Positions 14,591 to 54,316 of a stretch of DNA of 64,000 nt are shown piece after piece. Source of the stretch: Candidatus Saccharimonadales bacterium (lineage in GTDB: Bacteria; Patescibacteriota; Saccharimonadia; Saccharimonadales; JANWIN01). Position 1 is the stretch's first letter; each line of letters starts with the position of its first letter. The translations under genes were made by a program, and so were the position numbers. The DNA lies in contig JBBRLY010000012.1 in assembly GCA_038231155.1 (NCBI GenBank), positions 128,645-192,644 on the forward strand, in the 5' to 3' direction. The notes under the pieces are model-generated. The model was not told the origin of the DNA, searched no databases, and worked only from the letters and a program-made list of their open reading frames with translations.

Positions 14591-14609
14591 TTAAAGGAGA
14601 GGAGGATAT

Positions 14610-19766: not shown

Positions 19767-19787
19767 AACCAAGAAGGATTTGAAAAA

Positions 19788-20969
19788 GTGAGAATTATAC
19801 ATTTTGAACTTGCTAAAACTGGAAATGGTATCAGTGGGGGTGAGAGTTGCATGGTTCAAACGATTAAATATCTTGCTGCCAATAAAATTAGCAATGTTAT
19901 AGTTACAAATCAAAAAGGGCTCAAAGTGTATTCGTCTTTAGGAGTAAAAGAGGGTAAATATATTGAATATAAAATTGTAAAATCCATAAACAACGATGAT
20001 AATAGTTTATTAATCTTCTTTTCTTATATATTGGCAACATTTCGGTCCGCTAAATTGTTAAAAAAGTTTAAACTTCAAAAAGACGACCGACTAATATGCC
20101 ATTCTTATTTTTTCCCTAATTCTATTTCTACATATCTTTTGGCTAGAAGATATAGTAAACCTAAAGTTTTTTATTGGTATCACGCAGTAGCACCACCAAT
20201 ATTAAAAGGGTATAAAGGCGAGTTTACTAATGCTTATAATATTCCCACTCTTACAACAATTCACAACTCCTTTAATCAATATTTATACAGATTACTGACT
20301 CTTAAAAGTGGCGTGATAATCAATATTAACCCTTTTTATACCCAATACTTAAAAAAGAGATTTCCAAAAAATAAATTATTTACATTGAAATACTTTTCTA
20401 TAGTAAACGCAAGTGCTAAAATAGTTTCCAAAAAAAAATATGATATATGTTGGATAGGGAGATTCCAGGAATTAAAAGGCCTAGACGATTTTATAAAAAT
20501 ACTAACAATTGTTAAAAGAAAATACCCTAAATTAAAAGTTGTATTAATTGGTGGTGGTAATGAAAATAGTACAAACAAATTTCAGAAAAATATTAAAGCT
20601 AAAAGGCTCAACAGAACTGTTAACTATAAAGGTTTTATAATCACTAATAAGAGATTCAATTTTTTAAGTAGATCAAAAGTTTTTGCAATGACTAGTATTC
20701 ACGAAAGCTTTGGGATCGTTAACATCGAGGCTATGAAGTTAGGTATTCCAGTAGTTGCTTTTGACTTACCTACTTTTAAAATTTTTAAAAGAGGCATTGT
20801 AAAAGTTCCGATTTTAGACCATGAAAAGTTTGCTGATCAATTACTAAGGTTAATTAAAAATGAAAAATATAGAATAAATGTTGCAAAAGAAGCACGCATT
20901 TTTGCAAATTACTTTCAACCTAAGAAGACGCAAGAACAATTGTTAAAAATAATTACACAAATTTCATGA
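19788..20969 (+). CDS. GT4 glycosyltransferase
   Basis: The C-terminal HESFGIVNIEAMKLGIPVVAFDLPTFKIF matches the GT4 E-x7-E motif region. Confidence 0.75.
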   Translation: MRIIHFELAKTGNGISGGESCMVQTIKYLAANKISNVIVTNQKGLKVYSSLGVKEGKYIEYKIVKSINNDDNSLLIFFSYILATFRSAKLLKKFKLQKDDRLICHSYFFPNSISTYLLARRYSKPKVFYWYHAVAPPILKGYKGEFTNAYNIPTLTTIHNSFNQYLYRLLTLKSGVIININPFYTQYLKKRFPKNKLFTLKYFSIVNASAKIVSKKKYDICWIGRFQELKGLDDFIKILTIVKRKYPKLKVVLIGGGNENSTNKFQKNIKAKRLNRTVNYKGFIITNKRFNFLSRSKVFAMTSIHESFGIVNIEAMKLGIPVVAFDLPTFKIFKRGIVKVPILDHEKFADQLLRLIKNEKYRINVAKEARIFANYFQPKKTQEQLLKIITQIS

Positions 20970-23900
20970 ATAATATAAAAAAAAAATCGCTAGCCCTATT
21001 AACATTGTTTGTAGTAGCTATACCGATCTTAGCGCATTTTGGTATTCATACCATTCAAAGCTATACTGATTTTTTTATTCTAAATAGCCATAAGATACAA
21101 GATATTTTCTTTTCATGGACACAAAACAATTTAGGTCAATCAAATCTTAGTACGCTTTGGAGGATATTCCCTCTAGATTTTTATTATTATCCCTTAAATT
21201 ATATTATTCATATCCCTACTAACATTACACATAGTATCTTTCTATTCCTTTTGTTAAGCAGTGGATGTTTGTCATTTTATTTCTTTATCGGGGAATATTT
21301 TAATCGTCTTTTACCTCAGTGGGCTGTTTGGTTAAGTTCATTATTCTTTATTTTCAACGCCTATACCATGATTAACATTTCCGGTTCTTTTGCATTTTTA
21401 GCTGCTTATGTAGTCTTACCACTCCAACTTTTATTATTTATTAAAAGCATTCGCAATAAGAAGTGGTTTAAATATTTAATTTTGCTCGCAATAGTTAATG
21501 CCGCTGTGTTTGGCGTTAATCTAGCGTTTGCGTTTATAGACTTTGGTTTGTTGTTGGCATTTGGATTTTGGGAATGGGGAATATTGCATAACATAGAGTT
21601 TTGGGGAGTATTCAAGAGAATATTAATAGGAGGATTTTTTAGCTTGCTGTTATGTGTCTGGTGGTTTTATCCATTAACAGCAGGCAATAATTTAGATCGT
21701 CAAACATCATCATATGTATTAAACAGTGAAGGATTTTATAATTTAGACTCCAGAGTTGTTAATATATTTAGAAATTTTGGAGACTGGGGATTTTTTAGTG
21801 GTTATAAGGGGCAGGATTACCGACATTACGCACACTATTATAGAACAAACGCTTTGGTTATTTTTAGCACGTTTTCATTTTCAATTTTAATTTTAATAAG
21901 CTGTTTAGTTTTTCTTAAAAATAGGGAAAAGCGTTTTTATAAAAAAATATTATTCTTTTATCTTTTAATATTTGCTTTGCTGCCGGTAATAGGTGGGACA
22001 AACATAAGTTGGCCAACTCGCAGGGTGGCCATTTGGATATTTGCTAATGTACCCCTGGCTTTAATTTTCCGTAACACCTATAAATTTATGTCAGTGGTTC
22101 TTTTTTGCTACGCTACAATCCTGGCTCTATTTATTGGATACTTGGTATTGAAAATCAGGCAAAGAAAATTATCTAAAACATATGAAGTAATATTAGGTAC
22201 GGCTGTACTATCATTGATAATAATTAGTACTTTTCCTTTTTGGACCGGCAATTTGTATGAAAATAGCTCACAAACTACCAAACTTCCTTACTATTGGAAC
22301 CAGTCTGCAAGCTATGTTAATCAAAATTTGGATCCTTCAAAAGACCGTATTTTGCTATTACCCAACCAATACTTCCCTGTGTTTCAATGGCCTGAGGGTC
22401 GAAAATCATTTCCGGGTGAGTTTACGACCATAACTTTCAATACGCCAGTCGTATTTAACACCTGTAAAGGTTGTGGGCAATACTACACTTCTTTGGTGCA
22501 AAAATATATCTACGACAATTTGGAGAAAAAGAATTTTGATAAGTATTTGGGCCTCATCAATATTTCCACACTTTTGCAGCGCAATGATTACGACTATAAG
22601 TACTATAATGTTCAGTCACCTGACGAAATAAAATCTTTAATTTCTACTCATCATAATGTCCAATTGGGTAAAACTATAGGCAAACTTGATTTCTATAATC
22701 TAAAAAATTCTATTGTATACCCTAGGATATATAGTCCCGATCGTGCTATAACGGTTGACACACTAGACGATGCTCTCAATAGTTTCGATGATTTTAATCA
22801 ACAAGGGCATAAGAATGCGATTGTACTAACAGCTCAATTAAGTAAGCAGGACAAAATTACTCCAAATAATTCGAATGGTTACTTCAAATTATTCAATCAA
22901 GACAAGGCTAATATTAGAGGAGACACACTTGAACAATTCATCGATATTAGACAAGACTCTAGATACCAGCTAATCATGCGTGAGACTAAGAATTCAGTGT
23001 TTGTTAAAAAAGATAAAGACAATAATAAAAATGTAGATATCGCAAATCAAAGCGAAGTATTACATGAAGGCAAGTATGAATTTAGTACGCAAATTGAAAG
23101 AGAAAAGCAGAACTTAATATCAAATGGTTCGTTCGAACACGGAAATTGGCAAAAAACGGTGGGCGATTGTCAGCAGCAGATTGATAATCCTCCGGTTAGC
23201 ATGAAATTGGTAAACGATTCGACGCAAGGCAGTAGAGCTCTACAACTTTCTGCGGATTTGGAAGTAGCTTGCAATTACTCCGATCCAATAAAAAATTTCG
23301 ATAAAAATAAAAACTACGTTGCCTCTTTTGATTACAAAATACTGAAGGGTAAGTTTGCATCCTATTGTATTTGGGATGGCAATAGCTGCATTAACTCTAG
23401 GGAATTTAATAAAAAAGACTCTGATTGGCACCATATAGAAATATCTATTGAACCAAACCAGGGATCAAAACAACTTATAGTTTTTTTATATGCATCGGCA
23501 GCTGATGGAACGCCAGCGACTATTCGCTACGACAATGTTTCTATACGAGCTTTGAAGTATAACGTATTAAGTCAATTCTCGTTGTTACCTCAACACGTCA
23601 AGTTTGTGGATCCACTCAAGATTAGTTCTACAAGACAAATTAATCCTACACATTTCCAGATCCAGGCTTCAATTTATACAAGAGGCCTACTTGTTTTTCA
23701 AGAATCGTTCCATGCAGGGTGGCGAGCATTTATTCGTCCAACAAGTGGAAAGAAATTATCTTGGTGGGAATATCCGCTACTAAAAGAACCTGGATTTATG
23801 ATATCTGGTAAGAATCATATTATTACAAACGGATTTGGAAATGGTTGGTGGATTGATCCTGCTCAGATACCCAAAAATTTCCAAAGCGCTGACGGTAATT

Positions 23901-24166
23901 ATCAAATAACTTTAGAGTTTTGGCCCCAGCGATGGTTTTATGTAGGGTCTGTTATATCTGGCAGTACATTTATATTATGTATTGCATATTTAATTTATGA
24001 CTGGCGTAAAAAAAGTGATCCAACACCTAAAGGGAATCGACCTAAATTCTCACTTAGAGACTCTGGGGAATCTTGGATAACACAGCGAGTGAGAATAGAT
24101 ACTAGACAATTCCGGACTTCCCACAAACCGAGTGTGCCTAAAACCAAAAAGAGACTAGTGCAATGA
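20966..24166 (+). CDS. Large polytopic GT-C-type glycosyltransferase (AftD/DUF3367-like) with extracytoplasmic carbohydrate-binding-like domain
   Basis: There are about 13 N-terminal TM segments and a large soluble region containing NGSFEHGNWQKTVGDCQ...ALQLSAD...IRYDNVSI (CBM4/9-like jelly-roll pattern). A final TM follows (FYVGSVISGSTFILCIAYLIY). The family call is by architecture only. Confidence 0.55.
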   Translation: MNNIKKKSLALLTLFVVAIPILAHFGIHTIQSYTDFFILNSHKIQDIFFSWTQNNLGQSNLSTLWRIFPLDFYYYPLNYIIHIPTNITHSIFLFLLLSSGCLSFYFFIGEYFNRLLPQWAVWLSSLFFIFNAYTMINISGSFAFLAAYVVLPLQLLLFIKSIRNKKWFKYLILLAIVNAAVFGVNLAFAFIDFGLLLAFGFWEWGILHNIEFWGVFKRILIGGFFSLLLCVWWFYPLTAGNNLDRQTSSYVLNSEGFYNLDSRVVNIFRNFGDWGFFSGYKGQDYRHYAHYYRTNALVIFSTFSFSILILISCLVFLKNREKRFYKKILFFYLLIFALLPVIGGTNISWPTRRVAIWIFANVPLALIFRNTYKFMSVVLFCYATILALFIGYLVLKIRQRKLSKTYEVILGTAVLSLIIISTFPFWTGNLYENSSQTTKLPYYWNQSASYVNQNLDPSKDRILLLPNQYFPVFQWPEGRKSFPGEFTTITFNTPVVFNTCKGCGQYYTSLVQKYIYDNLEKKNFDKYLGLINISTLLQRNDYDYKYYNVQSPDEIKSLISTHHNVQLGKTIGKLDFYNLKNSIVYPRIYSPDRAITVDTLDDALNSFDDFNQQGHKNAIVLTAQLSKQDKITPNNSNGYFKLFNQDKANIRGDTLEQFIDIRQDSRYQLIMRETKNSVFVKKDKDNNKNVDIANQSEVLHEGKYEFSTQIEREKQNLISNGSFEHGNWQKTVGDCQQQIDNPPVSMKLVNDSTQGSRALQLSADLEVACNYSDPIKNFDKNKNYVASFDYKILKGKFASYCIWDGNSCINSREFNKKDSDWHHIEISIEPNQGSKQLIVFLYASAADGTPATIRYDNVSIRALKYNVLSQFSLLPQHVKFVDPLKISSTRQINPTHFQIQASIYTRGLLVFQESFHAGWRAFIRPTSGKKLSWWEYPLLKEPGFMISGKNHIITNGFGNGWWIDPAQIPKNFQSADGNYQITLEFWPQRWFYVGSVISGSTFILCIAYLIYDWRKKSDPTPKGNRPKFSLRDSGESWITQRVRIDTRQFRTSHKPSVPKTKKRLVQ

Positions 24167-29409: not shown

Positions 29410-32400
29410 ATGTCAGAGGCAGCTGTTAACCCTGAATCAGAGGACACCCCTCAAGAACGGCCTGCGTTACCGGAACAATTAGGAGCACAGGCTATTAATG
29501 GCGCCTTAGCAGATGATTCATTTGTTATTCCTGAAGAAACATTGAATTTCGATTCTTATATTGAGGTACAGCCCGAAAACTTAACTAATGCCTTGTTAGC
29601 CAAAAAATGGGGAGTGAGTAAATCGCTAGTTAGAATAATTACAAAAAAATTTCGCGATCGTCATCAGGATGAACAGTTTGTGTTTAAAAGTAACAAGGAT
29701 AGTCGTGCAAAAAATACTAAGCCGATTATTGCTTATACCTCTGAACAAGTTAATCTCATGGAGCTAGAAGATAATCGCAATATTCAACCACCCGAAGGAG
29801 CAAAAACACCGAAAGAACTCGCAGAGATGTGGGGGATAAGCCTTGGTGCAGCTCGTGAGCGTATCAAGCGGTTCCAGGAAAAATATCCCACTCAAGAACT
29901 TAAGAAATATCGAGTAGATAGCTCCGATCGAAAAGTTCGAATTATTACAGCTGACCAGGCCGCGTTAATAGAAGACGAAAATCAATCTATTCCGCTAGAA
30001 GGATATTCCACAGAGGACATAGCGCAAGAACTTGGTATAAGTGAAAGTAATGCAAGAAAAATTGCCAGAAACTTTCGTGCTACACATCCTGACGAACCTC
30101 TTACACTTGTCAGAGGCTCAAAGTCCTCACATAATATATATAAGTATTCGGCTGAACAGGTTGAGATTATAAAATCCTCGTATGATCGTAGTCGTGCCGT
30201 GCCAGAAGGAACATTGTCAATCAAAGAAATAGCTGTCTTATGGGGTGTTAATATAACGAGAGCACGTAACACAGTTTCTTGGTTTATTCAACAAAACCCT
30301 GATGTACAGATCTTAACTGTAACTAATGGCTCGAGGCTTGAAAAGAGACTTACTACTGAACAAGCTGAACAAATAAGAAAGAACTCTATTGATAGTGCAT
30401 CATCAGATTATAAAAGCATACACCAAGCAGCTGAAATTTGGGGAGTAAGTGCGAGTGAAACGCGAAGAAGAATACAGGCTTTTTGCGACGCAAATCCTGA
30501 CCAGAGTATTGCTAAATTTAAAATTCCTGGGGCATATAAACGGGTTGCTCATTTAAATCTCGAGCAAATGCGGATTATGGAGAACTCCCACAATGTGTCT
30601 GACTCAGTGCCTGAAGGATCGAAAACCATACAAGAATTAACTAATATGTGGAATATAAATAAAGAAACAGTAATACGCATTACCAGGGAATTTCGTTCCA
30701 GATATCCCGAAGAACAATTCTATGTCGGTAAGGTGCCAGATATTAAAAGACGCGTGGCCTTTTACACACCACAACAAATAGAAAGAATGACAGTTGAACG
30801 ACAACTTGATAGTTTTGTGCTTGATGATTGGAAATCTGCTAAAGATTTATCTGAATTATGGGACGTAAGCTTAAGTACGGTTTATGCTCAAGCCCATGCT
30901 CTAAAGAAAAGAGATCCTGACCAGGTACTTATGAAATATCGAACAACTGATGATGGCCGACTAGCGCTTTACCTTAGCCCTTATCAAATTAAGTCAATTC
31001 AGGACTCTTTACGTTCGGTAATTGGCGAAAAAGAAGTATTATCGTCTAGCTTGATCAATACTCTTATCGATATACAGTCTGGTGAGAGCATGGATGCGGT
31101 AAAGTTTCGGGGGTTTGTTGAACTTTGGGGTGCTGAAAGATCAATCGACTTAATATATCAATTCCATCCGGAATATAAAAAGATCCCAGTACCTTATGTC
31201 AGAAGTATAATCGCCGATTATCTAGGTGACTTTTTAGTTATAAGAGGTGATCTTCGATTAGATAAATTAGAGATGGGACTGGAATTTCTTTCAGACCAAA
31301 ACCTAAAAGATGGTTTCATTGAAGTTGTCAAAAACAGTTGTTTAAGCAATTACAATCAGTCGAAAAAAGCCGGCTCAAAAGAACCAGATCTATCAATTTT
31401 AACTTCATATATTGATCACTTAAGAGAACAAACACTTATATACACTACTCCAGACCTGGACGACGTATTTGACGAAGTCCAAGACTATTTCAATTCACTA
31501 TTTGAGATAGTCAAGCCAACAAATATTGTTGATAAATTAAAAGAGGGCCGGGCATTCCCAGACTTAAACCAATACATAAACATTAAAGAAATTGAGACTA
31601 AACAAAGAATGCTAATTGCCGATGAAATGGGTGTTGGTAAAAGTGCTTCAGCTATTCTGGCTAAGGAAAACCTAGGCGTAAAAAGGGCTTTAATAGTAGT
31701 ACCAAGTAACGTGGTGGAAATCTGGCAAACATACTTATCAGACATCCAAAGCGAAGATGGCGAAACCAATGGTTACTTTAAACAAGGAGAAGCACCTCGA
31801 GTACTGACCGTCGACAGTCTGAAAGCCCTAAAAAACATAAACGCCGAAGATTATGACTATATCATCTTGTCCCATGAACGTCTAACCGACAAGTATAGAG
31901 CAGCATTAGAACAACTAGGCTTTGACATGTTAATTGTTGATGAAGCCCACAAACTAAAAAATCTTATAAGTGGAAGGCGAGCGGATAATCTAGTCAAACT
32001 GGCTGGAGCATCTAATCTAGAAGGTAGTCCGCAATATCTAGCATTACTTTCTGGTACCCCAGTACCAAATAAAATTGGTGACATTGCCATGGTTCTTAAA
32101 CTACTGTATCCAGAAAAATTTGAACACGTCGCAAATAAAGAACTAACAGCTCAACTATTACAGGGAGATGTCTTAGACCTTAGAAGTCTACTAGTACCAA
32201 GAATGCAAATGAAGTCCTTAGCCGAAAGTATTGATATGCCCAGACTAGAAGAAAAAGTCCACACTTATCAACTGTCACCCCAGGTCCAGCAAGCTTATGA
32301 TGTTTTACTTGATGAAGACGAATTAACAGCCACCGAGAAACTGCAAGTACTTCGAAAATTTGTGCTTAATCCTAGATTTTTTACTGACCTTGAAAGTGCA

Positions 32401-33984
32401 ACAGAAACAAAAGCTACCGATGTCGGTGTTAGCTTACGGACAACTTTTGAAACTAAAGATAAGGTTGTAATGTTCGTGAATGGCTATATTCAGGATGTCA
32501 TAAGAGGTAAAAACACCATATTTGCTGATCTTAACTTACCAGACGATGTCCTAATAAGAACAATTCATGTAAACGTTAGCAAGAGTCAGCGCCAAGCAAT
32601 TCAAAAGCAATTAAAACAACCGGGCAAAATGCTATTGGCAGTTAGCGGACAAACAGCTGATGTTGGTGTAGATTTTTCGGCTGCTGATGAACTGATCTTC
32701 TATAACGAACCGTGGACAGAATATGACAAACTCCAACAGCGAGGCCGCGTCTATCGACCGGGTCTAACCAAAGACCTAATTAGCCATAGCTATATTACCA
32801 GTGGCACAATAGAAGAGGGTATTCACTTTTATATTAAATCCAAATATGAAGCCGTCGAAAAGCTACTGCGCGGTATCCCACTATCGCAACTAGAGCGCGA
32901 ATTACTAACCTTCGATGAGAAAAAAGGTAACCCCAATCTTGAATATAATCCCGACTTAGCCAAGTTCTACTTATCTTCGGTTGATCGAATGCTTAAGTTC
33001 TTTAGTCATGGTAAGCAGGCTGGCGAACAAAACTTTGCCAAGTTTAAAGCCAAATACGGCAAGGAATATGCCCAAACATATTCGATTATGGGCAGTAGAA
33101 GTTATCAGGCAAACGTCAGTAGATTAACCGGTACTGTGATTGACCGGCAAGTCAGAGCCCGTAAACAAAATCCGTCAAAAATCCGAATATTAGACATCGC
33201 ATCTGGACCAGAAATTCTAAAACAGCATATTATTGAACCATATCAGAAACAAATATACAGCCTAGACTTTAATGAACATCATTTTAATGGCAAAAAAGGC
33301 AGGAAAATTGTCGGAAGCTACCTCAAATTACCAATTGCCGACAAGACAATGGATTATGCTAACCTGGCTCTGTCACTTCATTACACAAGTTTTATACCGA
33401 CACGCCAGGATTATGAACGGCTAGAAGTAATTAGGGAACTTAACCGTGTCTTAACTGTTGGCGGGCGGGCTGTAATTAGTTTAACCAACAATCTTGATCT
33501 TAAAAATACTCAAACTTTTTATGCCGCGGTTAGTAAGTTAGGTTTTAAAGTAGTACATGAATACAGCGGTGATGTTAAATCTGGTACCGCCGTAAGAACT
33601 CGATTAATTACTTTAGAAAAAATCAGTGATTGTGAAGCTACTTTAGATGCCGATATAAGTAAATTAGGGTCTGGGTTAATGCAAGGCTTAAAATTCAAAA
33701 GGACTAATGTAAAACTCAAAGATTCACGTAAAATTGCCACCAGTTTCACTATAGATGATAAAAAAACTATCCGCGCCAATATCAATAACCTTGATCGTGC
33801 AGTTTTAAAAGAAGAACAAACTATTTTAGCCGGTATGGAAAGATTAAAGAACCGATACCAAACGGTTGAACAAATACCCCAGGTCGAGATAAAAAAGCGA
33901 GGCTATGCCCGTACTTTTAATTCTAAAAACTACTTGTTATTTAAATACTTGAAGAATAGCAACGGTGCGGTAATCGTGAGATAA
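29410..33984 (+). CDS. Giant fusion protein: 7 tandem HTH-like modules + SNF2-family ATPase + class I SAM methyltransferase
   Basis: SNF2 motifs: ADEMGVGKS (I, nt 31618), VDEAHKLKN (II, nt 31939), LLSGTPVPN (III) and VSGQTADVGVDFSAADELIFYNEPWTEYDKLQQRGRVYRPG (V/VI). Methyltransferase: IRILDIASGPE (nt 33187), IYSLDF, LPIADKTMDYANLALSLHY, LTVGGRAVISL. The N-terminal repeats are listed as a separate feature. Confidence 0.85.
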   Translation: MSEAAVNPESEDTPQERPALPEQLGAQAINGALADDSFVIPEETLNFDSYIEVQPENLTNALLAKKWGVSKSLVRIITKKFRDRHQDEQFVFKSNKDSRAKNTKPIIAYTSEQVNLMELEDNRNIQPPEGAKTPKELAEMWGISLGAARERIKRFQEKYPTQELKKYRVDSSDRKVRIITADQAALIEDENQSIPLEGYSTEDIAQELGISESNARKIARNFRATHPDEPLTLVRGSKSSHNIYKYSAEQVEIIKSSYDRSRAVPEGTLSIKEIAVLWGVNITRARNTVSWFIQQNPDVQILTVTNGSRLEKRLTTEQAEQIRKNSIDSASSDYKSIHQAAEIWGVSASETRRRIQAFCDANPDQSIAKFKIPGAYKRVAHLNLEQMRIMENSHNVSDSVPEGSKTIQELTNMWNINKETVIRITREFRSRYPEEQFYVGKVPDIKRRVAFYTPQQIERMTVERQLDSFVLDDWKSAKDLSELWDVSLSTVYAQAHALKKRDPDQVLMKYRTTDDGRLALYLSPYQIKSIQDSLRSVIGEKEVLSSSLINTLIDIQSGESMDAVKFRGFVELWGAERSIDLIYQFHPEYKKIPVPYVRSIIADYLGDFLVIRGDLRLDKLEMGLEFLSDQNLKDGFIEVVKNSCLSNYNQSKKAGSKEPDLSILTSYIDHLREQTLIYTTPDLDDVFDEVQDYFNSLFEIVKPTNIVDKLKEGRAFPDLNQYINIKEIETKQRMLIADEMGVGKSASAILAKENLGVKRALIVVPSNVVEIWQTYLSDIQSEDGETNGYFKQGEAPRVLTVDSLKALKNINAEDYDYIILSHERLTDKYRAALEQLGFDMLIVDEAHKLKNLISGRRADNLVKLAGASNLEGSPQYLALLSGTPVPNKIGDIAMVLKLLYPEKFEHVANKELTAQLLQGDVLDLRSLLVPRMQMKSLAESIDMPRLEEKVHTYQLSPQVQQAYDVLLDEDELTATEKLQVLRKFVLNPRFFTDLESATETKATDVGVSLRTTFETKDKVVMFVNGYIQDVIRGKNTIFADLNLPDDVLIRTIHVNVSKSQRQAIQKQLKQPGKMLLAVSGQTADVGVDFSAADELIFYNEPWTEYDKLQQRGRVYRPGLTKDLISHSYITSGTIEEGIHFYIKSKYEAVEKLLRGIPLSQLERELLTFDEKKGNPNLEYNPDLAKFYLSSVDRMLKFFSHGKQAGEQNFAKFKAKYGKEYAQTYSIMGSRSYQANVSRLTGTVIDRQVRARKQNPSKIRILDIASGPEILKQHIIEPYQKQIYSLDFNEHHFNGKKGRKIVGSYLKLPIADKTMDYANLALSLHYTSFIPTRQDYERLEVIRELNRVLTVGGRAVISLTNNLDLKNTQTFYAAVSKLGFKVVHEYSGDVKSGTAVRTRLITLEKISDCEATLDADISKLGSGLMQGLKFKRTNVKLKDSRKIATSFTIDDKKTIRANINNLDRAVLKEEQTILAGMERLKNRYQTVEQIPQVEIKKRGYARTFNSKNYLLFKYLKNSNGAVIVR
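29572..31011 (+). repeat. Protein-level tandem array: seven ~66-74-aa modules (x-ELAxxWGVSxxxxRxxIxxFxxxxPdxx...(Y/T)xxEQxxxI)
   Basis: WG(V/I)S-type cores occur at residues 67, 141, 208, 278, 344, 413 and 484. Each is followed by a basic helix (RERIKRF, ARKIARNF, TRRRIQAF...), a conserved P-(D/E) and a (Y/T)-x-x-(E/Q)-Q helix. The modules are diverged, with no near-identical DNA repeats. Confidence 0.7.
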
Positions 33985-48028: not shown

Positions 48029-48100
48029 TCTAGTAAATTAAGAAAAGTTTCTAGACGATTATAGATTTTATTTTTATTAGAAACGTTGCATAATGTAATT

Positions 48101-48535
48101 ATGAGCGAGTTAGACCCATCTTTAAATGTTGTTAGTGCATTAGATAGTCTCAAAAAAGTTTTATCTTTAGAAAGACAAATTAGAAAAGAGCATACTGATG
48201 CTTTGAATACATTGAGTGAGTATTTAGAAGCTTCAAAGGGCAAGAGTTTTATGGTATCCGGTATAAGTCACAGCGCTGGCCAAAAGTTTATCCGTCAAAT
48301 AGGCGACCAATCCCGCGAAAGCTGGACATTTGCAGCCACCCATAGTTTGACAGAAGAAATCAAACCATTTGAAGCAAGAGAAATGGTTAACGGTGGAATA
48401 TCGAAAAGCCAACTGTTTTCAGGTACTTCTGTAGAATTGTTTTATCCAGGAGTAGATAATTTTAAGATTCTCGTTGGATTGGACAGTATTATTCAATTTG
48501 AGCCACTTAGTGACAGCGTTCCAACTATCAGCTAA
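48101..48535 (+). CDS. Hypothetical protein
   Basis: I prefer the ATG at 48101 (MSELDPSLNV), which is 6 nt after CATAAT (48089-48094). I recognise no motif. Confidence 0.45.
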   Translation: MSELDPSLNVVSALDSLKKVLSLERQIRKEHTDALNTLSEYLEASKGKSFMVSGISHSAGQKFIRQIGDQSRESWTFAATHSLTEEIKPFEAREMVNGGISKSQLFSGTSVELFYPGVDNFKILVGLDSIIQFEPLSDSVPTIS

Positions 48536-48555
48536 AGCTTTAAGTAAAGTCATAT

Positions 48556-49281
48556 ATGAATGGAATTTTATTGGTAGATAAGCCGGTGGGCTGGACTAGT
48601 TTTGACGTTGTGGCAAAAGTGCGCAATCTACTTAAAGAAAGCGGCAAATCCATATATGAAGTTAAAAAAGGTCAAAGTCCTAAAAAACTTCGTGTAGGAC
48701 ATACCGGGACTTTAGACCCTTTGGCAAGTGGCATATTGGTACTTCTCATTGGTAATTACACAAAATGTGCCGATGAATTTACTAAATTAGATAAAACATA
48801 TGAAGTCGAAATGAAACTAGGAGAAATAAGCACTACCGGAGATGAAGAAGGGAACAAACAGCTTGTAAGTAAGCAAATTCCAAGTGGGCAGTCGGTTATA
48901 GCTGCCCTAAAGTCATTTCAAGGCCAAATTGACCAAACTCCACCTAAGTATTCAGCAATTAAAATAAACGGACAGCGGGCCTATAAATTAGCTAGAGCCG
49001 GTAAAGATGTTCAAATGCAACCCAGAAAAATAACAATTTATAAACTGGAACCGACAAATTACTCATTTCCAATAGTAAAATTTAAAGCCGAAGTATCTAG
49101 TGGTACATACATTCGCAGCTTAGTAGAGGATATTGGCCAAAAACTGGGCGTTGGAGCTTATATGAGTGCTCTCCGGCGCACTCAAGTTGGCGCCTATAAT
49201 CTAAGCCAAGCACTTAAAATAACGGATATAACCCTCGATTTTCAAAGCATCACCACAAACCTATTGACAAATACACAATAA
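48556..49281 (+). CDS. truB: tRNA pseudouridine(55) synthase
   Basis: GILLVDKPVGWTSFDVV, the catalytic-Asp block VGHTGTLDPLASGILVLLIG, YSAIKINGQRAY, SSGTYIRSL. Confidence 0.93.
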   Translation: MNGILLVDKPVGWTSFDVVAKVRNLLKESGKSIYEVKKGQSPKKLRVGHTGTLDPLASGILVLLIGNYTKCADEFTKLDKTYEVEMKLGEISTTGDEEGNKQLVSKQIPSGQSVIAALKSFQGQIDQTPPKYSAIKINGQRAYKLARAGKDVQMQPRKITIYKLEPTNYSFPIVKFKAEVSSGTYIRSLVEDIGQKLGVGAYMSALRRTQVGAYNLSQALKITDITLDFQSITTNLLTNTQ

Positions 49282-49325
49282 ATTGCTATACTACGGAAGA
49301 TAGTTAAAAATAAAAAGGTTCTGAA

Positions 49326-49481
49326 ATGGCTAAAAAGCACAAACTAATCACTTCTTCTACTTTAAATGTAGAAACCGAATTGCTGCCTGCTAAAACTGTT
49401 ACCAAGCAGGACTATCTAAAATTAGGTGGTGTACGACTCCGGGAAATTGCTGATGGTCCATATATTGTAAACCTTCCGTAA
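49326..49481 (+). CDS. 51-codon ORF between truB and its displaced 3' fragment
   Basis: Not in the supplied track because it is under 60 aa. Sequence MAKKHKLITSSTLNVETELLPAKTVTKQDYLKLGGVRLREIADGPYIVNLP. It is preceded by TTGCTATACT (49284-49293) and AAAAGG. Confidence 0.3.
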   Translation: MAKKHKLITSSTLNVETELLPAKTVTKQDYLKLGGVRLREIADGPYIVNLP

Positions 49482-49493
49482 AAACCACCTCAT

Positions 49494-49692
49494 CCAATGG
49501 TAAAATTTAAAATCGAAGTTTCCAACGGCACCTATATCCGCAGTATGGTAGAGGATATTGGCCAAAAAATTGGGGATTGGGGCCTACACCAGTGCTCTAC
49601 GGCGCATTTCTGTTGGCCAATTTAAGCTAACTGAGGCTGTGCAAATACCAGGGTTAAATCAAGAAGCATTGCACCAAGCCTTGAATAATTAG
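49494..49692 (+). pseudogene. truB: Displaced, frameshifted second copy of the truB 3' end
   Basis: It translates as MVKFKIEVSNGTYIRSMVEDIGQKIG, then after a +1 shift GAYTSALRRISVGQFKLTEAVQIPGLNQEALHQALNN*. It is collinear with truB 49069-49281 (IVKFKAEVSSGTYIRSLVEDIGQKLGVGAYMSALRRTQVGAYNL). One extra A in the run at ~49566-49571 breaks the frame, and no 5' part is present. Confidence 0.8.
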
Positions 49693-49741
49693 CTTAGAGA
49701 GATTTACTTAATATCAAAAGTACGATGACTTTTTAGGGAAT

Positions 49742-50878
49742 TTACTGAATGCTCCAGTCTAGAGTTGTAGTAGAAGCAGGCGCGCTGTATTGAACGGTGC
49801 CAAGACGAGTTTTGGCTAAGTTAGTCGAGTTTACCGAATATATCTGATCAGATGAAGCACCAGCGCTATTATCTACCGCAATTGCACCACTGCTAGGCGA
49901 CCAATCTATATCACCCAGGCCGTTACTACCAGTAAATGAAGCTGCAATGTTATGTTTGCTAGCTAAGTTAATGATATGTAACTGAGCTGTTGAACCAAAG
50001 CTGTAGGTTCCATAGGCAAGTCGGCTACCATCTGGCGACCAGGTAGGGTTATAACAGTCATTACCATTGACTGTGCTACAAGTAACAACCACTTGGTTAC
50101 CAGAACCATTAGAATTTACAATATGGATATTGCCAGAACCACCGGCTGTGTAAGTTATTTGGCTACCATTTGGTGACCAAGCATTATGAGTACTTAAAAT
50201 AGAATTAACTCCAACAACTATATTAACCATGCCGCTACCATCACTATTGATGGCAAAAATACCTTTCTTACCTTCAAACCCGGCGCTATAAAAAAGTAGC
50301 CTATTACCGCCTGGAGACCACTGTAAGGCTAGAACCTCAGTAATTGTGCCAGAGGTGATCTTCTTATAATTTGTGCCGTCTGCGTTTAAAGTGTAAATAG
50401 CTGTGTTTGTAGTACCTGAGTTATATGGACCTTCATATATAGCTAGTTTCTTGGCAGTTTCTGACCAGGCAATTGATGTTATAAAAGATCCATCACTAAG
50501 CACTGGTGTTATACGTTTAGCGTTTAAACCGTCTGGAGACATACTATAAACCGCTGTTCCTGCAGGATTCGCATAAAATATCTTCGAGCCATTTGAACTC
50601 CAGGTCGGTAAACTACCAGCAATTTTAGTATTTTTGACTGTTCCTGAAGAACTAGCAGTATAAATATAATTAGTATTGGCAGTTTTCCCACCGTTAAAAA
50701 CTATAAGTGGTGCCGGTGTAACTAGATTTGAATCAATTTGCGGAACTGGTGTCTGAGCATGACTTTTAGATAATACATATCCTCCGATAGCACCAACCAT
50801 AACAATCACAACAATCGGAATTATTATATGATGGCCAAAGCCACTCTGACTTTTATGAAGACGACTAATAAAGATCAT
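49742..50878 (-). CDS. Membrane-anchored PD40/TolB-like beta-propeller protein
   Basis: N-terminal TM (HIIIPIVVIVMVGAIGGYVL) and repeated W-S-P-(D/N/G)-G-S-x-(L/I)-x-(Y/F) blades (WSSNGSKIFY, WSPGGNRLLFY, WSPNGSQITY, WSPDGSRLAY). Confidence 0.65.
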   Translation of the reverse strand: MIFISRLHKSQSGFGHHIIIPIVVIVMVGAIGGYVLSKSHAQTPVPQIDSNLVTPAPLIVFNGGKTANTNYIYTASSSGTVKNTKIAGSLPTWSSNGSKIFYANPAGTAVYSMSPDGLNAKRITPVLSDGSFITSIAWSETAKKLAIYEGPYNSGTTNTAIYTLNADGTNYKKITSGTITEVLALQWSPGGNRLLFYSAGFEGKKGIFAINSDGSGMVNIVVGVNSILSTHNAWSPNGSQITYTAGGSGNIHIVNSNGSGNQVVVTCSTVNGNDCYNPTWSPDGSRLAYGTYSFGSTAQLHIINLASKHNIAASFTGSNGLGDIDWSPSSGAIAVDNSAGASSDQIYSVNSTNLAKTRLGTVQYSAPASTTTLDWSIQ

Positions 50879-51028
50879 ATTTTTATTTCCTTAGTTTTAA
50901 TTTTTATCTGTTGCTTATGGTTAAAAGTATCTACTTTTGACCCATAAACGTCAAGCTGTATCTGTAAAAAAGTTTTAAAGACTTCTGAACGGTCTCCAAA
51001 AGTTTCCTAAATAGGAATGGAAATATTT

Positions 51029-51607
51029 CTATACTTGGGGAGTAGGACCCGCAACAGCCGATAGACCTTCATCTTTATCAATATACTTGCCAAGCTCAGA
51101 GTCGCTAAGTGCAGTTATTAATTGTTGGGCTTCATCGCCATTTAAGTAATGCGGTGCTGGCTGTTCGCCAGCTTTAACAGCATGTAGATAATCATGGAGG
51201 GCAGCAAGATCATCTTTTCCTTCAATTCTCTGTGCTAGGACAAGAAGAGGTGGTAGCTCCGGTAGACATATAACTCGATAAGTATTTTCGGAATCTCCAA
51301 ACTCAGCTATGTCTTCTTCCATCATATAGGGTGACTTATCGCTAAATAGTGAAAGGGCAACCTCAGCCCAACCTTCATTTGGCTCATAGCGAAGATATAT
51401 CGGCCTCATGGCATCGGCTTCACCTAGCTGCACGGGGAACTGAAAAGTACCTAAGTCGAATCCTACAAAATTAGGTTCTAAATCTTCTCCTGTGTTTTTT
51501 TTGACGTGATCAGCTAGCTCGGCACCTAAAGCCTGGGTGCGTTCTCTAACTGTTCTTGTAAGTAATACTTGAGGTGGCTCAGCTCCAGTTTTAGCTTCTC
51601 CGGTCAT
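51029..51607 (-). CDS. Acidic hypothetical protein
   Basis: 192-aa ORF. I recognise no motif. Confidence 0.45.
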   Translation of the reverse strand: MTGEAKTGAEPPQVLLTRTVRERTQALGAELADHVKKNTGEDLEPNFVGFDLGTFQFPVQLGEADAMRPIYLRYEPNEGWAEVALSLFSDKSPYMMEEDIAEFGDSENTYRVICLPELPPLLVLAQRIEGKDDLAALHDYLHAVKAGEQPAPHYLNGDEAQQLITALSDSELGKYIDKDEGLSAVAGPTPQV

Positions 51608-51763
51608 ATGGAAATCCTAATGATTTGATTCTAAATAACATAGTAATTATATCAGAGCCCTGTTTGTGAAATGTACCTTAGTTTTACATTCTTGACGACG
51701 GTATACTCGCGAAAAGTTTGCTATTGCAAAAGGGGACCTAATCTGTTAGACTACGTCCAAGAT

Positions 51764-52030
51764 ATGATCAGTGGTGAGAACAAAACTAAGACCATTGACG
51801 CTTTAGCAGAAAGCAAAAATGACACTGGCAGCAGTGCTGTACAGGTAGGCATTCTCACAAAGCGGATTGCTGAAATTACCGATCACTTAAAGACGCATAA
51901 GAAAGATCATGCCGCCCGAAGGGGACTACTGCAAATGGTTGGCAATCGCCGCCGTCATCTGCGCTACATAGCTCGTCAAGATAGTAAAAAATATCTAGAT
52001 TTAATCGATAAACTAGGCATCAGAAAATAG
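51764..52030 (+). CDS. rpsO: Ribosomal protein S15
   Basis: DTGSSAVQVGILTKRIAEITDHLKTHKKDHAARRGLLQMVGNRRRHLRYI is the S15 core. The start is set at ATG 51764 (88 aa). Confidence 0.92.
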   Translation: MISGENKTKTIDALAESKNDTGSSAVQVGILTKRIAEITDHLKTHKKDHAARRGLLQMVGNRRRHLRYIARQDSKKYLDLIDKLGIRK

Positions 52031-52180
52031 TTAGAAGTTAGATTACGCAATGAAGAAATTCATTACGAAATCTAGGATCTAAATTCTAGAATAATTAATA
52101 GTGTAGGCGACGGAGCACAGTCCCCTTAACAGCGGATTGAACCTCGTTACTTACCCTAGAGAAAGGAAAAGAGTACGAAC

Positions 52181-54316
52181 GTGAGTACAATTAATCCGTT
52201 TGGCAAAAAAATTATAAAAGTCGAGACTGATTTTTGTGGTAAACCCTTATCACTAGAAGTTGGTCGGGTTGGTTTTAGAAGTAGCAGTGCAGTTATAGCC
52301 CGCTACGGTGATACTGTCATATTAGCTACAGCTATGATTGGCGACAAACCTGCCGTAGGCTTTGATTATTTCCCATTAAGTATCGATTACGAAGAACGCA
52401 TGTATGCTGCCGGCAAGATTAGCGGTAGCCGATTTATTAAACGTGAAGGTCGTCCCAGCGATGATGCTGTCTTAATCGGCCGCATAATTGATCGTCCAAT
52501 CCGTCCACTGTGGCCCAAGGGCTATAGAAACGAAGTCCAAGGAGTCGTGACTGTCCTTAGCATTGATCCTAGTTTTAGACCAGACGCCATTGCCATGATA
52601 GCCATGAGTGCCGCCTTTATGTTAACCGGCGCGCCATTTGACGGTCCAATTGCTGGAGTCCGGATTGGCCAGGTAGATGGTAAGTTAACACCGTTTGCTA
52701 GTGCTGAACAACTAGATATCGGCTTGGATCTATTTGTAGCCGGAACTTCTGAGGCCATTATGATGGTGGAAGCCGGTGCCAATGAAGTAACTGAAGCTAC
52801 CATTGTAGAAGGCTTAAAACTAGCCCAGAGAGTTATCAAGCCAGCCGTAGAACTACAAAAAGAATTAATTAAAAAAGTTGGCGTAACTCCCCAGGAGTTT
52901 GAGCTACTGTTACCCGATAGTGATATTGAGCAGCGGGTAGAGACATGGCTAGCTGGAAAGTTAGGTGCCGGACTACGCATGCCGTACCCGGAACGTAACG
53001 ATCTGGTCAGTAACTTAAAACAGCAAATGCTAAGTCATTTTGAAGAAGCCGTAGGTGAAGGTTTTAGTGAAGTAAAACATGAATACCTCGATGCCTTTGG
53101 GCATGCCGTACATAATGATGTACGCCGTGGCATCGTAGAAGATAACATCCGTCCTGATGGACGTAAATTTGCTGACATTAGACAGCTGAGTAGTGAAGTC
53201 GGCATTTTACCCCGAACCCATGGCTCTAGCTTATTTACTAGAGGTGTTACCCAGGCTATGAATATTATTACTTTAGCACCGCTTAGCTATTCGCAAATGG
53301 TGGACACTATGGAGCGCCAAGGTGAAAAGCGTTACATGCACCACTATAACGCCCCGGGATATACTGTCGGAGAAATTAAGCGTATGGGTAGCCCCGGAAG
53401 GCGCGAAATTGGTCACAGCGCCCTTGCAGAGCGCGCCATATTGCCAATGATTCCAGCTGAAGATGAGTTTCCTTATGCTATACGATCAGTTACTGAAATT
53501 ATGAGTCAAAACGGCAGTACCTCTATGGCTGCTACTTGTTCAAGCACATTAGCCCTAATGGACGCCGGCGTACCACTTATCCGTCCAGTTAGCGGGGTAG
53601 CCATGGGTTTAATTAAAGATGGCGACAAAATAGTCGTCTTAAGTGACATTGCCGATGCCGAAGACTTTGCCGGAGATATGGACTTTAAGATAGCTGGTAC
53701 CGAAAAAGGAATTACGGCCCTACAAATGGACATGAAAGTTCATGGTTTGCCGGTAGATACTCTAGCCCAGGCTTTGGAACAATCTAAAAAAGCTAGAGCC
53801 ACCATTTTGGATCATATGCTTAGCACTTTAGCAGCTCCTCGTAAAGACATGAGTCCTTACGCACCACGAGTCGAATCTATTAAAATCAATCCGGAGAAGA
53901 TTCGTGAAGTCATTGGTAAAGGCGGTGAAATGATTAACAAGATTATTGCCGAAACTGGTGCCGAAATAGATATTAAAGACGATGGCACGGTATTTATTGC
54001 CAGCCCCGATAAACAAAGCATTGATGCCGCTATCCAATGGGTACAAAATTTAACCGAAGAACCAATCGTCGGCAGAATCTATGAAAATGTACCGGTAGTT
54101 AGTGTTATGGACTTCGGTGCCTTTGTGCAGATTTTGCCCGGTAAAGATGGCTTAGTACACGTTAGTGAAATGAAAGAAGAACGGGTTAATAAGCCCAGTG
54201 ATGTAGTTAAAGAAGGCGATAAAGTAAATGTTAAATTGGTGGCTATTGATGACCGTGGCCGTCTGCAATTAAGTATGAAAGCCGTACAACGCGAGAAAAA
54301 AGATGGTAAAGACTAA
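52181..54316 (+). CDS. pnp: Polynucleotide phosphorylase
   Basis: Two RNase PH domains (RPIRPLWPKGY, TRGVTQA..., GSPGRREIGHSALAERA), then KH (IGKGGEMINKI) and S1 (GAFVQILPGKDGLVHVSE). GTG start behind an AAAGGA Shine-Dalgarno sequence. The rpsO-pnp order is classic. Confidence 0.97.
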   Translation: MSTINPFGKKIIKVETDFCGKPLSLEVGRVGFRSSSAVIARYGDTVILATAMIGDKPAVGFDYFPLSIDYEERMYAAGKISGSRFIKREGRPSDDAVLIGRIIDRPIRPLWPKGYRNEVQGVVTVLSIDPSFRPDAIAMIAMSAAFMLTGAPFDGPIAGVRIGQVDGKLTPFASAEQLDIGLDLFVAGTSEAIMMVEAGANEVTEATIVEGLKLAQRVIKPAVELQKELIKKVGVTPQEFELLLPDSDIEQRVETWLAGKLGAGLRMPYPERNDLVSNLKQQMLSHFEEAVGEGFSEVKHEYLDAFGHAVHNDVRRGIVEDNIRPDGRKFADIRQLSSEVGILPRTHGSSLFTRGVTQAMNIITLAPLSYSQMVDTMERQGEKRYMHHYNAPGYTVGEIKRMGSPGRREIGHSALAERAILPMIPAEDEFPYAIRSVTEIMSQNGSTSMAATCSSTLALMDAGVPLIRPVSGVAMGLIKDGDKIVVLSDIADAEDFAGDMDFKIAGTEKGITALQMDMKVHGLPVDTLAQALEQSKKARATILDHMLSTLAAPRKDMSPYAPRVESIKINPEKIREVIGKGGEMINKIIAETGAEIDIKDDGTVFIASPDKQSIDAAIQWVQNLTEEPIVGRIYENVPVVSVMDFGAFVQILPGKDGLVHVSEMKEERVNKPSDVVKEGDKVNVKLVAIDDRGRLQLSMKAVQREKKDGKD

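Follow-up and report, generated by a model that had tools for sequence, protein, structure and literature searches.

How does an intact housekeeping gene come to be followed, a short distance downstream, by a second and broken version of its own 3' end? The truB locus raises this question in the 64-kb window, the whole stretch of DNA analyzed here, from an uncultivated member of the Saccharibacteria (Saccharimonadales), and the features concerned are collected in Table 1. When DNA integrates into the 3' end of a gene, it typically leaves the gene with a restored end and the original one displaced. An earlier note on this DNA had read the locus in that way, as the result of site-specific integration of a cassette of ~ 425 bp or as the remnant of a larger island.

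Table 1. Features of the truB-rpsO region, in window coordinates
Feature	Coordinates	Strand	Description
truB	48556-49281	+	Intact tRNA pseudouridine-55 synthase gene, 241 aa; Pfam TruB_N + TruB_C_2
Copy 1	49066-49281	+	In-frame truB 3' end, codons 171-241; first repeat arm
Longest block common to both copies	49123-49143	+	21 nt, GTAGAGGATATTGGCCAAAAA, encodes VEDIGQK; partner at 49548-49568
Strong sigma-70-type promoter	49264-49292	+	TTGACA-17-TG-n-TATACT; 11/12 matches plus TG
ORF51	49326-49481	+	Orphan 51-codon ORF, probable small gene from its codon usage
Putative illegitimate junction	49482-49492		truB homology starts abruptly right after the ORF51 stop
Copy 2	49491-49692	+	Frameshifted truB fragment, codons 171 to stop; pseudogene piece
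A6 run	49564-49569	+	Single extra A breaking the copy 2 frame; truB has A5 at 49139-49143
Propeller gene	49742-50878	-	378-aa PD40/TolB-like beta-propeller protein with N-terminal hydrophobic segment; Pfam PD40
192-aa gene	51029-51607	-	Hypothetical acidic protein; part of the truB-rpsO cargo
Second rpsO-type promoter	51724-51752	+	TTGCAA-17-TG-n-TAGACT; ends 11 nt before the rpsO ATG
rpsO	51764-52030	+	Ribosomal protein S15; directly after truB in relatives
pnp	52181-54316	+	Polynucleotide phosphorylase; well-conserved flank, candidate homologous anchor

The protein encoded by truB clears the NCBIfam equivalog model TIGR00431 with 228.7 bits (cut-off 151.45), and the nearest TruB proteins in a search of 5.8e9 proteins, at 65% identity, belong to Saccharimonadales/Patescibacteria. 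The last ~ 70 codons of the gene recur 425 bp downstream, with 210 bp between the truB stop codon and copy 2. This duplication, previously judged by eye at ~ 75-80% identity, is real: blastn inside the window aligns the two copies over 138 nt with one gap at 76.1% identity (E 8.8e-23), and an ungapped repeat of 81 nt (49068-49148 and 49493-49573) is 80% identical. Formal alignment had been set as the test of whether the downstream fragment resembles truB, and tblastn with TruB gives significant matches to copy 2 in two frames (49494-49574 and 49558-49647, E 7e-15). The ORF in the second of these frames, 49558-49692, matches TruB_C_2 with an E value of 4.6e-5.

Copy 2 has a TAG stop of its own (49690-49692), and its frame is broken by one additional A, both as described in the earlier note; removal of one A yields a continuous 66-codon reading, HPMVKFKIEVSNGTYIRSMVEDIGQKLGIGAYTSALRRISVGQFKLTEAVQIPGLNQEALHQALNN. 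It starts at codon 171, inside the conserved end of the catalytic domain, and the His171 codon (CAT) of copy 2 lies on the junction, at a position occupied by Tyr in 93% of relatives. Among the 15 columns that are conserved to at least 90%, copy 1 deviates at one and copy 2 keeps 13; of the two columns at which copy 2 deviates (272 sequences), one is the column at the junction. Because deletion of a single A restores 66 codons and 13 of the 15 conserved residues are kept, copy 2 was probably inactivated fairly recently. An estimate of ~ 8% neutral decay of copy 2, made with 33 sequences that showed three changes at their invariant columns, was withdrawn; 272 sequences give two. The longest block common to both copies encodes the most conserved peptide. 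By our own estimate, ~ 0.3 identical runs of 21 nt are expected by chance at 80% identity, so that the block, being of about chance length, gives no evidence for an att core.

The substitutions between the two ends offer a greater level of detail about their history. Differences are distributed over the three codon positions as 12:11:26, synonymous sites are near-saturated, and dN/dS is 0.23 (bootstrap 95% range 0.10-0.47). A dN/dS of 0.55 is the expectation for one copy decaying neutrally since a local duplication, and only 0.9% of bootstraps reach this value, in agreement with the earlier view that a simple local duplication does not account for so much divergence. As the differences are mostly synonymous, each end evolved as part of a functional gene in a lineage of its own, and the two were joined later; the substitution pattern thus supports the derivation of one truB end from another lineage. 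An old tandem duplication in place, comprising the truB end and downstream DNA, with later divergence of the redundant copy, could produce the direct-repeat layout and its 425-bp period. However, the observed dN/dS excludes a long neutral branch, copy 2 is free of stop codons and carries one indel despite the near saturation at third positions, and the spacer is not repeated after copy 2. The substitution pattern refutes such a duplication at about p = 0.01, and we find it hardly credible. The stop-free reading does not by itself discriminate as a test of neutral decay, the probability of no stop being 0.19 at 24% divergence.

At the DNA level, the copies are 75% identical to each other (58% at third positions), and any sampled relative reaches at most 70% and 56%, respectively. 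The other lineage would hence be a sister lineage and not a distant donor. Alignment with the truB genes of relatives, which the earlier note had proposed as the way to recognize the native copy, showed each copy to be closest to the other and singled out neither of them clearly as native. A single-protein scan of reference genomes found no close TruB relatives, and family-alignment scans gave 160 loci, none with more than 60% identity. A two-row profile of both truB ends, run in a large protein search, returned only truncated proteins with at most 63% identity and no donor or ancestor; no sequence closer than 63% to copy 2 was found in the protein search, and no genome with a TruB identity above 65% in the collections searched. 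Three short proteins consisting of TruB_C_2 only (P0123, P0124 and P0137) were considered as orphan ends and rejected as products of contig edges or frameshifts.

A promoter reaches from the end of truB into the spacer between the two copies. Its -35 element (TTGACA, 49264-49269) sits inside the last codons of truB and is separated by 17 nt from TATACT (49287-49292), with a TG upstream, and the whole is the top promoter match within 48400-52200. The earlier note had described a promoter-like box here; the box is real and better than described, and what had been missed is its identity. In relatives, TGnTAnAAT directly follows the truB stop, ahead of rpsO, and one related locus (L014) has an identical TGCTATACT. 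Judged by this equivalent position, the TGCTATACT box 3' of copy 1 is the predicted conserved rpsO promoter, which in the window faces ORF51. The 51-codon ORF between the copies is present as the earlier note had reported, and its codon-usage score corresponds to the 60th percentile of real genes, a score reached by 1% of spurious ORFs, indicating that ORF51 is probably a real small gene. The search of other genomes for this ORF that had been called for was run, and ORF51 matches itself only, both among 5.8e9 proteins and among 1.84e9 representatives; it has no match in Pfam, PHROGs or NCBIfam. An AlphaFold2 model of ORF51 was unusable for a fold search (pLDDT 56, pTM 0.20).

The spacer (49282-49492) resembles neither truB nor anything else in the window, and comparison with 86 related loci gave no similarity either. 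As for an RNA element, Rfam returned nothing, whether at its gathering score or with E ≤ 1, and the fold z-score of the spacer is -1.17. Homology to truB starts at 49491-49493, next to this unrelated DNA, and no spacer-like sequence follows copy 2. Past either stop codon, no homology of the tails to each other, to the rpsO leader or to relatives beats shuffled controls; in the best case (49281-49302 and 51740-51764), 19 of 22 positions matched, and 427 of 2000 shuffles reach that score.

The wider context of the repeat is the interval between truB and rpsO, which the earlier note had not considered. Here this gap is 2,482 bp, the second largest among 34 loci with truB and rpsO in order; the median of these, window included, is 81 bp, and 21 of the 33 related loci have a gap of at most 120 bp. 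Since truB abuts rpsO in relatives, the whole 2,482 bp is extra DNA at this locus. The cargo between the two genes varies among lineages of Saccharibacteria. No other locus has the propeller gene in its truB-rpsO gap, and the product of this gene matches the NCBIfam TolB-propeller model below the cut-off. The 192-aa protein has no family match in Pfam, PHROGs or NCBIfam and no homologue in 169 loci or in phage records. A protein clustered with the propeller protein (P0146) was tried as an independent contig across the junction and turned out to be an unrelated antitoxin-like fragment.

Could an integrating element have left this arrangement? An integrase-bearing element carrying a replacement end may have hit the truB 3' end, with deletion leaving 210 bp between attL and attR, or a cassette of 425 bp may have been mobilized in trans; the 21-nt block could then act as the core. 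Yet neither the DNA between the repeats nor any of the 43 large ORFs of the 64-kb window yielded an integrase, a transposase or another recombinase, and the repeats are 76-80% identical rather than identical. The arrangement does not recur either, since a search for insertions at truB elsewhere, which the earlier note had suggested, covered 166 further truB loci and detected a second truB end in none. Among 2.9 million viral contigs, none carries a piece of a truB end or a relative of ORF51, phage and plasmid records gave no match, and in the papers searched truB is nowhere reported as an att site, the only matches being false ones to the surname Trubl. Site-specific integration, the central claim of the earlier note, is on these grounds very improbable. 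A circle of ~ 425 bp holding a truB end, the promoter and ORF51 could instead have integrated by a single crossover within the homologous 200 bp, for example in the 21-nt block, making both copies chimeras of host and donor. A single crossover gives exactly this layout, with direct repeats around a unique segment and the old end downstream (PMC2935791), and the frameshift lies at the 3' edge of the block. Nevertheless, a RecA-type crossover in DNA of 76-80% identity with only 21 identical bases is unfavorable, the block encodes the most conserved peptide, which is enough to account for its identity, the two copies show no step in divergence over their length, and no circular or free form was found among viral contigs or phage and plasmid records. 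We consider such a crossover improbable. As for the sequence data themselves, the source is a metagenome-assembled contig in which two co-occurring strains or species might have been stitched together, and the Logan contig that equals the window base for base over 8,156 nt, junction and A-run included, is not independent of it. If the assembly graph had gone wrong at the one 21-mer that the copies share, however, the product would be a clean chimeric truB and not tandem ends with unique DNA between them, the frameshift of copy 2 is unexpected for a live allele of a co-occurring strain, and the same proteins and neighbors occur on three contigs (NCBI, Logan). The chance of such an artefact is slim indeed.

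The locus can be best explained by a recombination scar in the variable truB-rpsO slot, where DNA of one Saccharimonadales lineage meets that of a sister lineage, a reading to which we give a probability of roughly 0.55. The left block would be contiguous and comprise truB with copy 1, the rpsO-type promoter and ORF51. The right block, from the other lineage, would begin in mid-truB at codon 171 and run through copy 2, the propeller gene, the 192-aa gene and the second rpsO promoter into rpsO, a single illegitimate junction linking the two. We infer that the simplest mechanism is homology-facilitated illegitimate recombination (HFIR) of linear DNA after natural transformation, in which a homologous crossover in a conserved flank would secure one end and the other would be joined without homology. 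The junction has no homology, and the foreign DNA is diverged (dN/dS 0.23, sister lineage), both as HFIR would have it. HFIR was defined in the competent bacteria Acinetobacter baylyi, Streptococcus pneumoniae and Pseudomonas stutzeri (PMC3240628), and cultivated Saccharibacteria have been shown experimentally to be naturally competent, with integration of linear DNA through ComEC (PMC10633639). No com or recA genes were identified within the 64-kb window. Following the event, the truB fragment would have been functionless and have acquired its +1 A frameshift later, with truB intact throughout, and ORF51 would have been left as the sole gene downstream of the strong promoter from which relatives express rpsO. 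The proposed scar is a one-off, seen in a single instance, and gives no evidence of a mobile cassette or a new system.

As to which of the two ends is foreign, the evidence leans weakly, at somewhat better than even odds, toward a host of the left-hand lineage, with copy 2 as a passenger that came in with the cargo genes and was anchored in rpsO/pnp. Since PNPase is far better conserved than TruB (72-80% and 57-67% amino-acid identity to relatives), pnp is the likelier homologous anchor. The host has a mean GC3 of 0.319 (sd 0.065), close to which lie copy 1 (0.32) and ORF51 (0.29), whereas copy 2, at 0.42, is at the host 95th percentile (~ p = 0.05), S15 being similar at 0.40. The cargo genes beside copy 2 have host-like values of 0.28 and 0.30, which fits poorly with a simple donor richer in GC3. 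The same kind of event may also have taken place with the polarity assumed in the earlier note, which held the in-frame end to be the replacement and the downstream end to be ancestral. In that case copy 2 would have been the original end of the host truB, and between it and rpsO would have lain the propeller gene, the 192-aa gene and the promoter. An incoming truB 3' part from a sister lineage, with the rpsO promoter and ORF51, would have recombined homologously in or upstream of truB, its far end joining illegitimately at host codon 171; the gene would thereby have been restored and the old end pushed 425 bp downstream. The architecture fits this course equally well: some 425 bp or more of incoming DNA would suffice, truB is kept intact, hence a neutral event, and copy 2 is left contiguous with the genes leading to rpsO. 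Against it, copy 1 and ORF51 are host-typical in GC3 and codon usage, copy 2 is the one near the edge of the host range and has the longer branch whether amino acids or third positions are compared, and the homologous anchor would have to be sought among genes of low conservation (TruB, a 513-aa protein with 45-70% identity, a 149-aa orphan) and not in rpsO/pnp. None of these points is decisive. GC3 and branch length lean weakly away from the polarity of the earlier note, which seems to us somewhat unlikely.

Comparison with known systems helps to place the proposed scar. With HFIR it shares the joining of foreign DNA through one junction without homology, a conserved flank as anchor and a competent host clade (PMC3240628, PMC10633639), and the outcome is an insertion, probably with loss of resident DNA. 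In contrast to HFIR observed in competent bacteria, the event here is deduced from one natural product, and the donor would be a sister lineage. Resident DNA has a homeologous counterpart of the incoming truB end, and the scar would show up as a repeat for this reason. C-terminal displacement in rhs, CDI and T6SS loci likewise leaves an intact gene, a small ORF and a detached 3' end with a piece of the upstream region (PMC2935791, PMC5361080). The mechanisms proposed there are also HFIR or a circle with a single crossover, HFIR having been put forward for the layout in which a new end displaces the old one (PMC5361080). However, the gene here is a housekeeping TruB equivalog and not a polymorphic toxin, both ends are orthologous TruB_C_2 domains rather than alternative toxic tips, nothing marks ORF51, which has no family or relative, as an immunity protein, and there is neither an array nor a recurrence in 166 loci. 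Tyrosine-integrase islands and prophages in the 3' ends of tRNA or protein genes resemble the locus in the direct repeats of the target-gene 3' end and in the intact gene; they differ from it in that here no integrase is present, the repeats are 76-80% identical with 210 bp between them, and no free form or second occurrence is known from the searches.

Variable cargo slots between conserved core genes, whose contents turn over by homologous recombination in the flanks, form a further point of comparison, as the truB-rpsO gap holds differing genes between conserved flanks in Saccharibacteria. Flank-to-flank replacement in such slots is scarless, whereas here an illegitimate join on one side left a gene fragment. 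One may speculate that truB-rpsO is a dedicated cargo slot in which small promoter-bearing cassettes such as ORF51 are swapped between lineages via the truB 3' end as a handle, akin to rhs-like tip displacement on a housekeeping gene; we see little likelihood in this. Equally doubtful is its corollary, that the window would have captured an intermediate in which the displaced end is still to be seen, the sole such case to date.

The locus reveals no new mobile element or system, and it carries a caution: a restored gene end together with a displaced one is not always the product of site-specific integration. If the recombination scar is the right reading, the locus would be a clean natural footprint of DNA exchange between lineages of Saccharibacteria with an illegitimate join, in a group whose natural competence has been shown only recently and whose routes of gene gain are poorly documented. 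The conserved rpsO promoter, split from rpsO and now facing the orphan ORF51, may in addition offer a small example of a route by which new genes come to be expressed.

In the genome of an uncultivated member of the Saccharimonadales (Patescibacteria), a real recombination scar is found between truB and rpsO, where a xenologous truB fragment lies in a variable inter-gene slot. The final ~70 codons of truB (end 1) are present again 425 bp downstream as a frameshifted second end (end 2). The repeat contains an ungapped stretch of 81 nt at 80% identity, is recovered by blastn with 76% identity across 138 nt (E 8.8e-23), and in a gapped alignment extends to both stop codons. The second-frame ORF of end 2 matches Pfam TruB_C_2. 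The A-run at 49564-49569 in end 2 consists of six A, while the corresponding truB run has five; removal of one A restores a 66-codon reading that ends at its own TAG. The earlier note's duplicated end with its own stop and an extra A is thereby borne out, and the 51-codon ORF (ORF51) lies between the copies as it described. In a search of 5.8 billion proteins, the closest TruB is 65% identical and is named Saccharimonadales/Patescibacteria. TruB, ORF51 and the neighboring proteins of the window are found on NCBI and Logan metagenome contigs only.

Features of the truB-rpsO locus and of other parts of the window
Feature	Coordinates	Strand	Block	Remarks
dnaG	5987-7735
Sigma-70 paralogues	7735-8856, 10005-11450, 11796-13265			RpoD-like, regions 1.2-4
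Glycosyltransferase and polysaccharide cluster	13340-24166			GC 0.28-0.34 at 17358-24166
1524-aa protein	29410-33984			HTH motifs, SNF2-type helicase, methyltransferase domain
149-aa orphan gene	48086-48535			between 513-aa protein and truB
truB	48556-49281		left	Pfam TruB_N and TruB_C_2; above NCBIfam TruB equivalog cut-off
truB end 1	49066-49281		left	in frame
rpsO-type promoter			left	between end 1 and ORF51
Spacer	49282-49492			211 bp
ORF51	49326-49481	+	left
truB end 2	49491-49692		right	frameshifted
Propeller gene	49742-50878	-	right
192-aa gene	51029-51607	-	right
Second rpsO promoter box	51744-51752		right	TGTTAGACT
rpsO	51764-52030	+	right
pnp	52181-54316	+

Homology to truB sets in abruptly at 49491-49493, at most 10 bases past the ORF51 stop. 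The spacer has no similarity within the window or to 86 related loci (blastn, tblastx), and no homology is demonstrable past either stop codon. The abrupt start next to an unrelated spacer points to one illegitimate junction, with a block of one lineage on the left and a block of another on the right.

Each block carries its own promoter of the same type. In relatives, an extended -10 box, TGnTAnAAT, directly follows the truB stop (L002 5700-5762, L004 5715-5746, L012, L014, L015, L021, L022, L024 and L028), only 10-45 nt ahead of the rpsO ATG, which implies that the rpsO leader of this clade is very short. The box of L014 is identical to that of the window over nine letters, TGCTATACT, indicating that the latter is a conserved rpsO promoter. 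It forms part of the best promoter match of the region (TTGACA-17-TATACT plus TG, 11/12), with the -35 within the final truB codons. The earlier note was right to single out a promoter-like box, but was unaware that it is the rpsO promoter shared by relatives, here facing ORF51. Promoter and leader after end 1 (AAT-TGCTATACTACG--GAAGATA, 49281-49302) resemble those of rpsO (AATCTGTTAGACTACGTCCAAGATA, 51740-51764) with 19/22 matched, a non-significant score reached in 427/2000 shuffles, although the functional positions are equivalent.

ORF51 starts 33 nt downstream of this near-consensus promoter. Its codon usage ranks at the 60th percentile of the genome's real genes and is equalled by only 1% of spurious ORFs. 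No relative turned up among 5.8 billion proteins or when 1.84 billion representatives were searched exhaustively, and ORF51 yields no family match, no confident structure and no link to mobility. Judged by codon usage and promoter, ORF51 probably encodes a small orphan protein that is expressed.

The nearest long-contig relatives have in common the gene order fpg, holA, rpsT, a large hypothetical gene, truB, rpsO, pnp, udg and rnj, and their rpsO starts 33-67 bp past truB. Across 34 loci in which truB and rpsO occur in this order (33 relatives and the window), the gap has a median of 81 bp; it is at most 120 bp in 21, 121-400 bp in 4 and above 400 bp in 9, including the window, whose 2,482 bp are the second largest. 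Contents differ by lineage (a PGDYG-domain gene, a 131-aa protein, an ABC-F ATPase), and throughout the Saccharibacteria this gap acts as a variable slot (L007, L008, L010, L011, L016, L026, L087, L088 and L089). The 149-aa orphan gene upstream of truB matches no family and lacks a homologue in the 169 loci; its position is taken by a 250-aa gene in L004 and by nothing in L002, which makes it another small slot of variable content. In L088, truB (165-829) is apparently split by a frameshift into TruB_N (161 aa) and TruB_C_2 (60 aa), as is pnp in L021 (6811-8915) and L028 (3029-5147); sequencing errors or genuine pseudogenes may account for these cases.

Elsewhere in the window, the three consecutive sigma-70 paralogues directly downstream of dnaG are unusually many for a small genome. 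The glycosyltransferase cluster, markedly low in GC, may be an envelope island gained by horizontal transfer; an 802-aa GT2-methyltransferase fusion and a 1066-aa GT-C/AftD-like protein are among its products. The 90%-identity cluster that holds the propeller protein is represented by an unrelated 54-aa antitoxin-like fragment beside a PIN gene; this P0145/P0146 grouping is a clustering artefact of the protein collection.

An assembly artefact is an unlikely source of the second end. The window is identical to a Logan contig, which hence offers no separate assembly. However, an error through the sole shared 21-mer would yield a clean chimeric gene rather than tandem ends, a frameshift is unexpected for the live allele of a co-occurring strain, and the same gene order is present on three contigs. 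Over 56 ungapped codons, the ends differ at codon positions 1/2/3 by 12/11/26, with a dN/dS of 0.23 (bootstrap 95% range 0.10-0.47). One copy drifting neutrally after duplication in place would give 0.55, a value reached by only 0.9% of bootstraps, and a second spacer copy, looked for behind end 2, is absent. An old local duplication is rejected on these grounds. The earlier view that the ends are too diverged for a recent simple duplication is upheld as well. Compared as DNA, each copy is the nearest relative of the other (75% identity overall, 58% at third positions), and end 1 reaches at most 70% and 56%, respectively, with any sampled relative. The second lineage is hence sister to the host and closer to it than any database sequence. 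Of the 15 columns with a conservation of at least 90% among 272 TruB sequences, end 2 keeps 13, one deviation being His171 on the junction codon, which indicates that it was part of a working gene until fairly recently. As judged from these comparisons, the two ends stem from two lineages.

Site-specific integration into the truB 3' end, the mechanism initially proposed, fails on integrase and recurrence and survives at most as a remnant scenario. Integrase, transposase and other recombinase domains are absent from ORF51, from its neighbors and from all 43 large ORFs of the window, whose content is housekeeping and envelope genes. The longest identical block of the 76-80% identical repeats spans 21 nt (49123-49143 and 49548-49568), close to our estimate of the chance limit, and codes for VEDIGQK, the most conserved motif. 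Comparing every locus's own truB end with all 169 loci gave a convincing second site in the window's own contigs only. Neither a truB-end fragment nor an ORF51 relative was found in 2.9 million viral contigs, the 2.48-kb segment had no match among phage or plasmid records, and the literature searched held no report of truB as attachment site. Homology-facilitated illegitimate recombination (HFIR), in which linear DNA is joined with homology at one end and without it at the other (PMC3240628), has been proposed for loci whose old end is displaced by a new 3' end and a small gene (PMC5361080); in the rhs literature, the same layout is attributed to a circular intermediate and a single crossover (PMC2935791). 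The arrangement seen here fits either route. We prefer HFIR because a crossover within only 76-80% identical DNA is unfavorable.

The host is one of the two lineages, and the block of the other would have come in by one event, whose second boundary would be homologous and show up only against close relatives. The earlier note took the in-frame end as the replacement; weak evidence leans the other way, and we favor end 2 as the incoming passenger at odds of about 5:3. The GC3 of end 1 (0.32), ORF51 (0.29) and the truB 5' part (0.29) fits the host distribution (mean 0.319, sd 0.065, 66-codon windows), whereas end 2 (0.42) lies at its 95th percentile and on a longer branch, at amino-acid and third positions alike. 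In addition, conservation is far higher in rpsO and pnp than in truB and the genes upstream of it, which makes the former pair a better recombination anchor between diverged lineages. Against a foreign end 2, the adjacent propeller and 192-aa genes are host-like in GC3, and a value of 0.40 is seen for S15 itself.

Natural competence is established for cultivated Saccharibacteria, which integrate linear DNA through ComEC-dependent homologous recombination (PMC10633639). HFIR-type acquisition from a sister lineage is the most likely origin of the scar. It represents neither a mobile cassette nor a new system, but one more case of a type of event already known.
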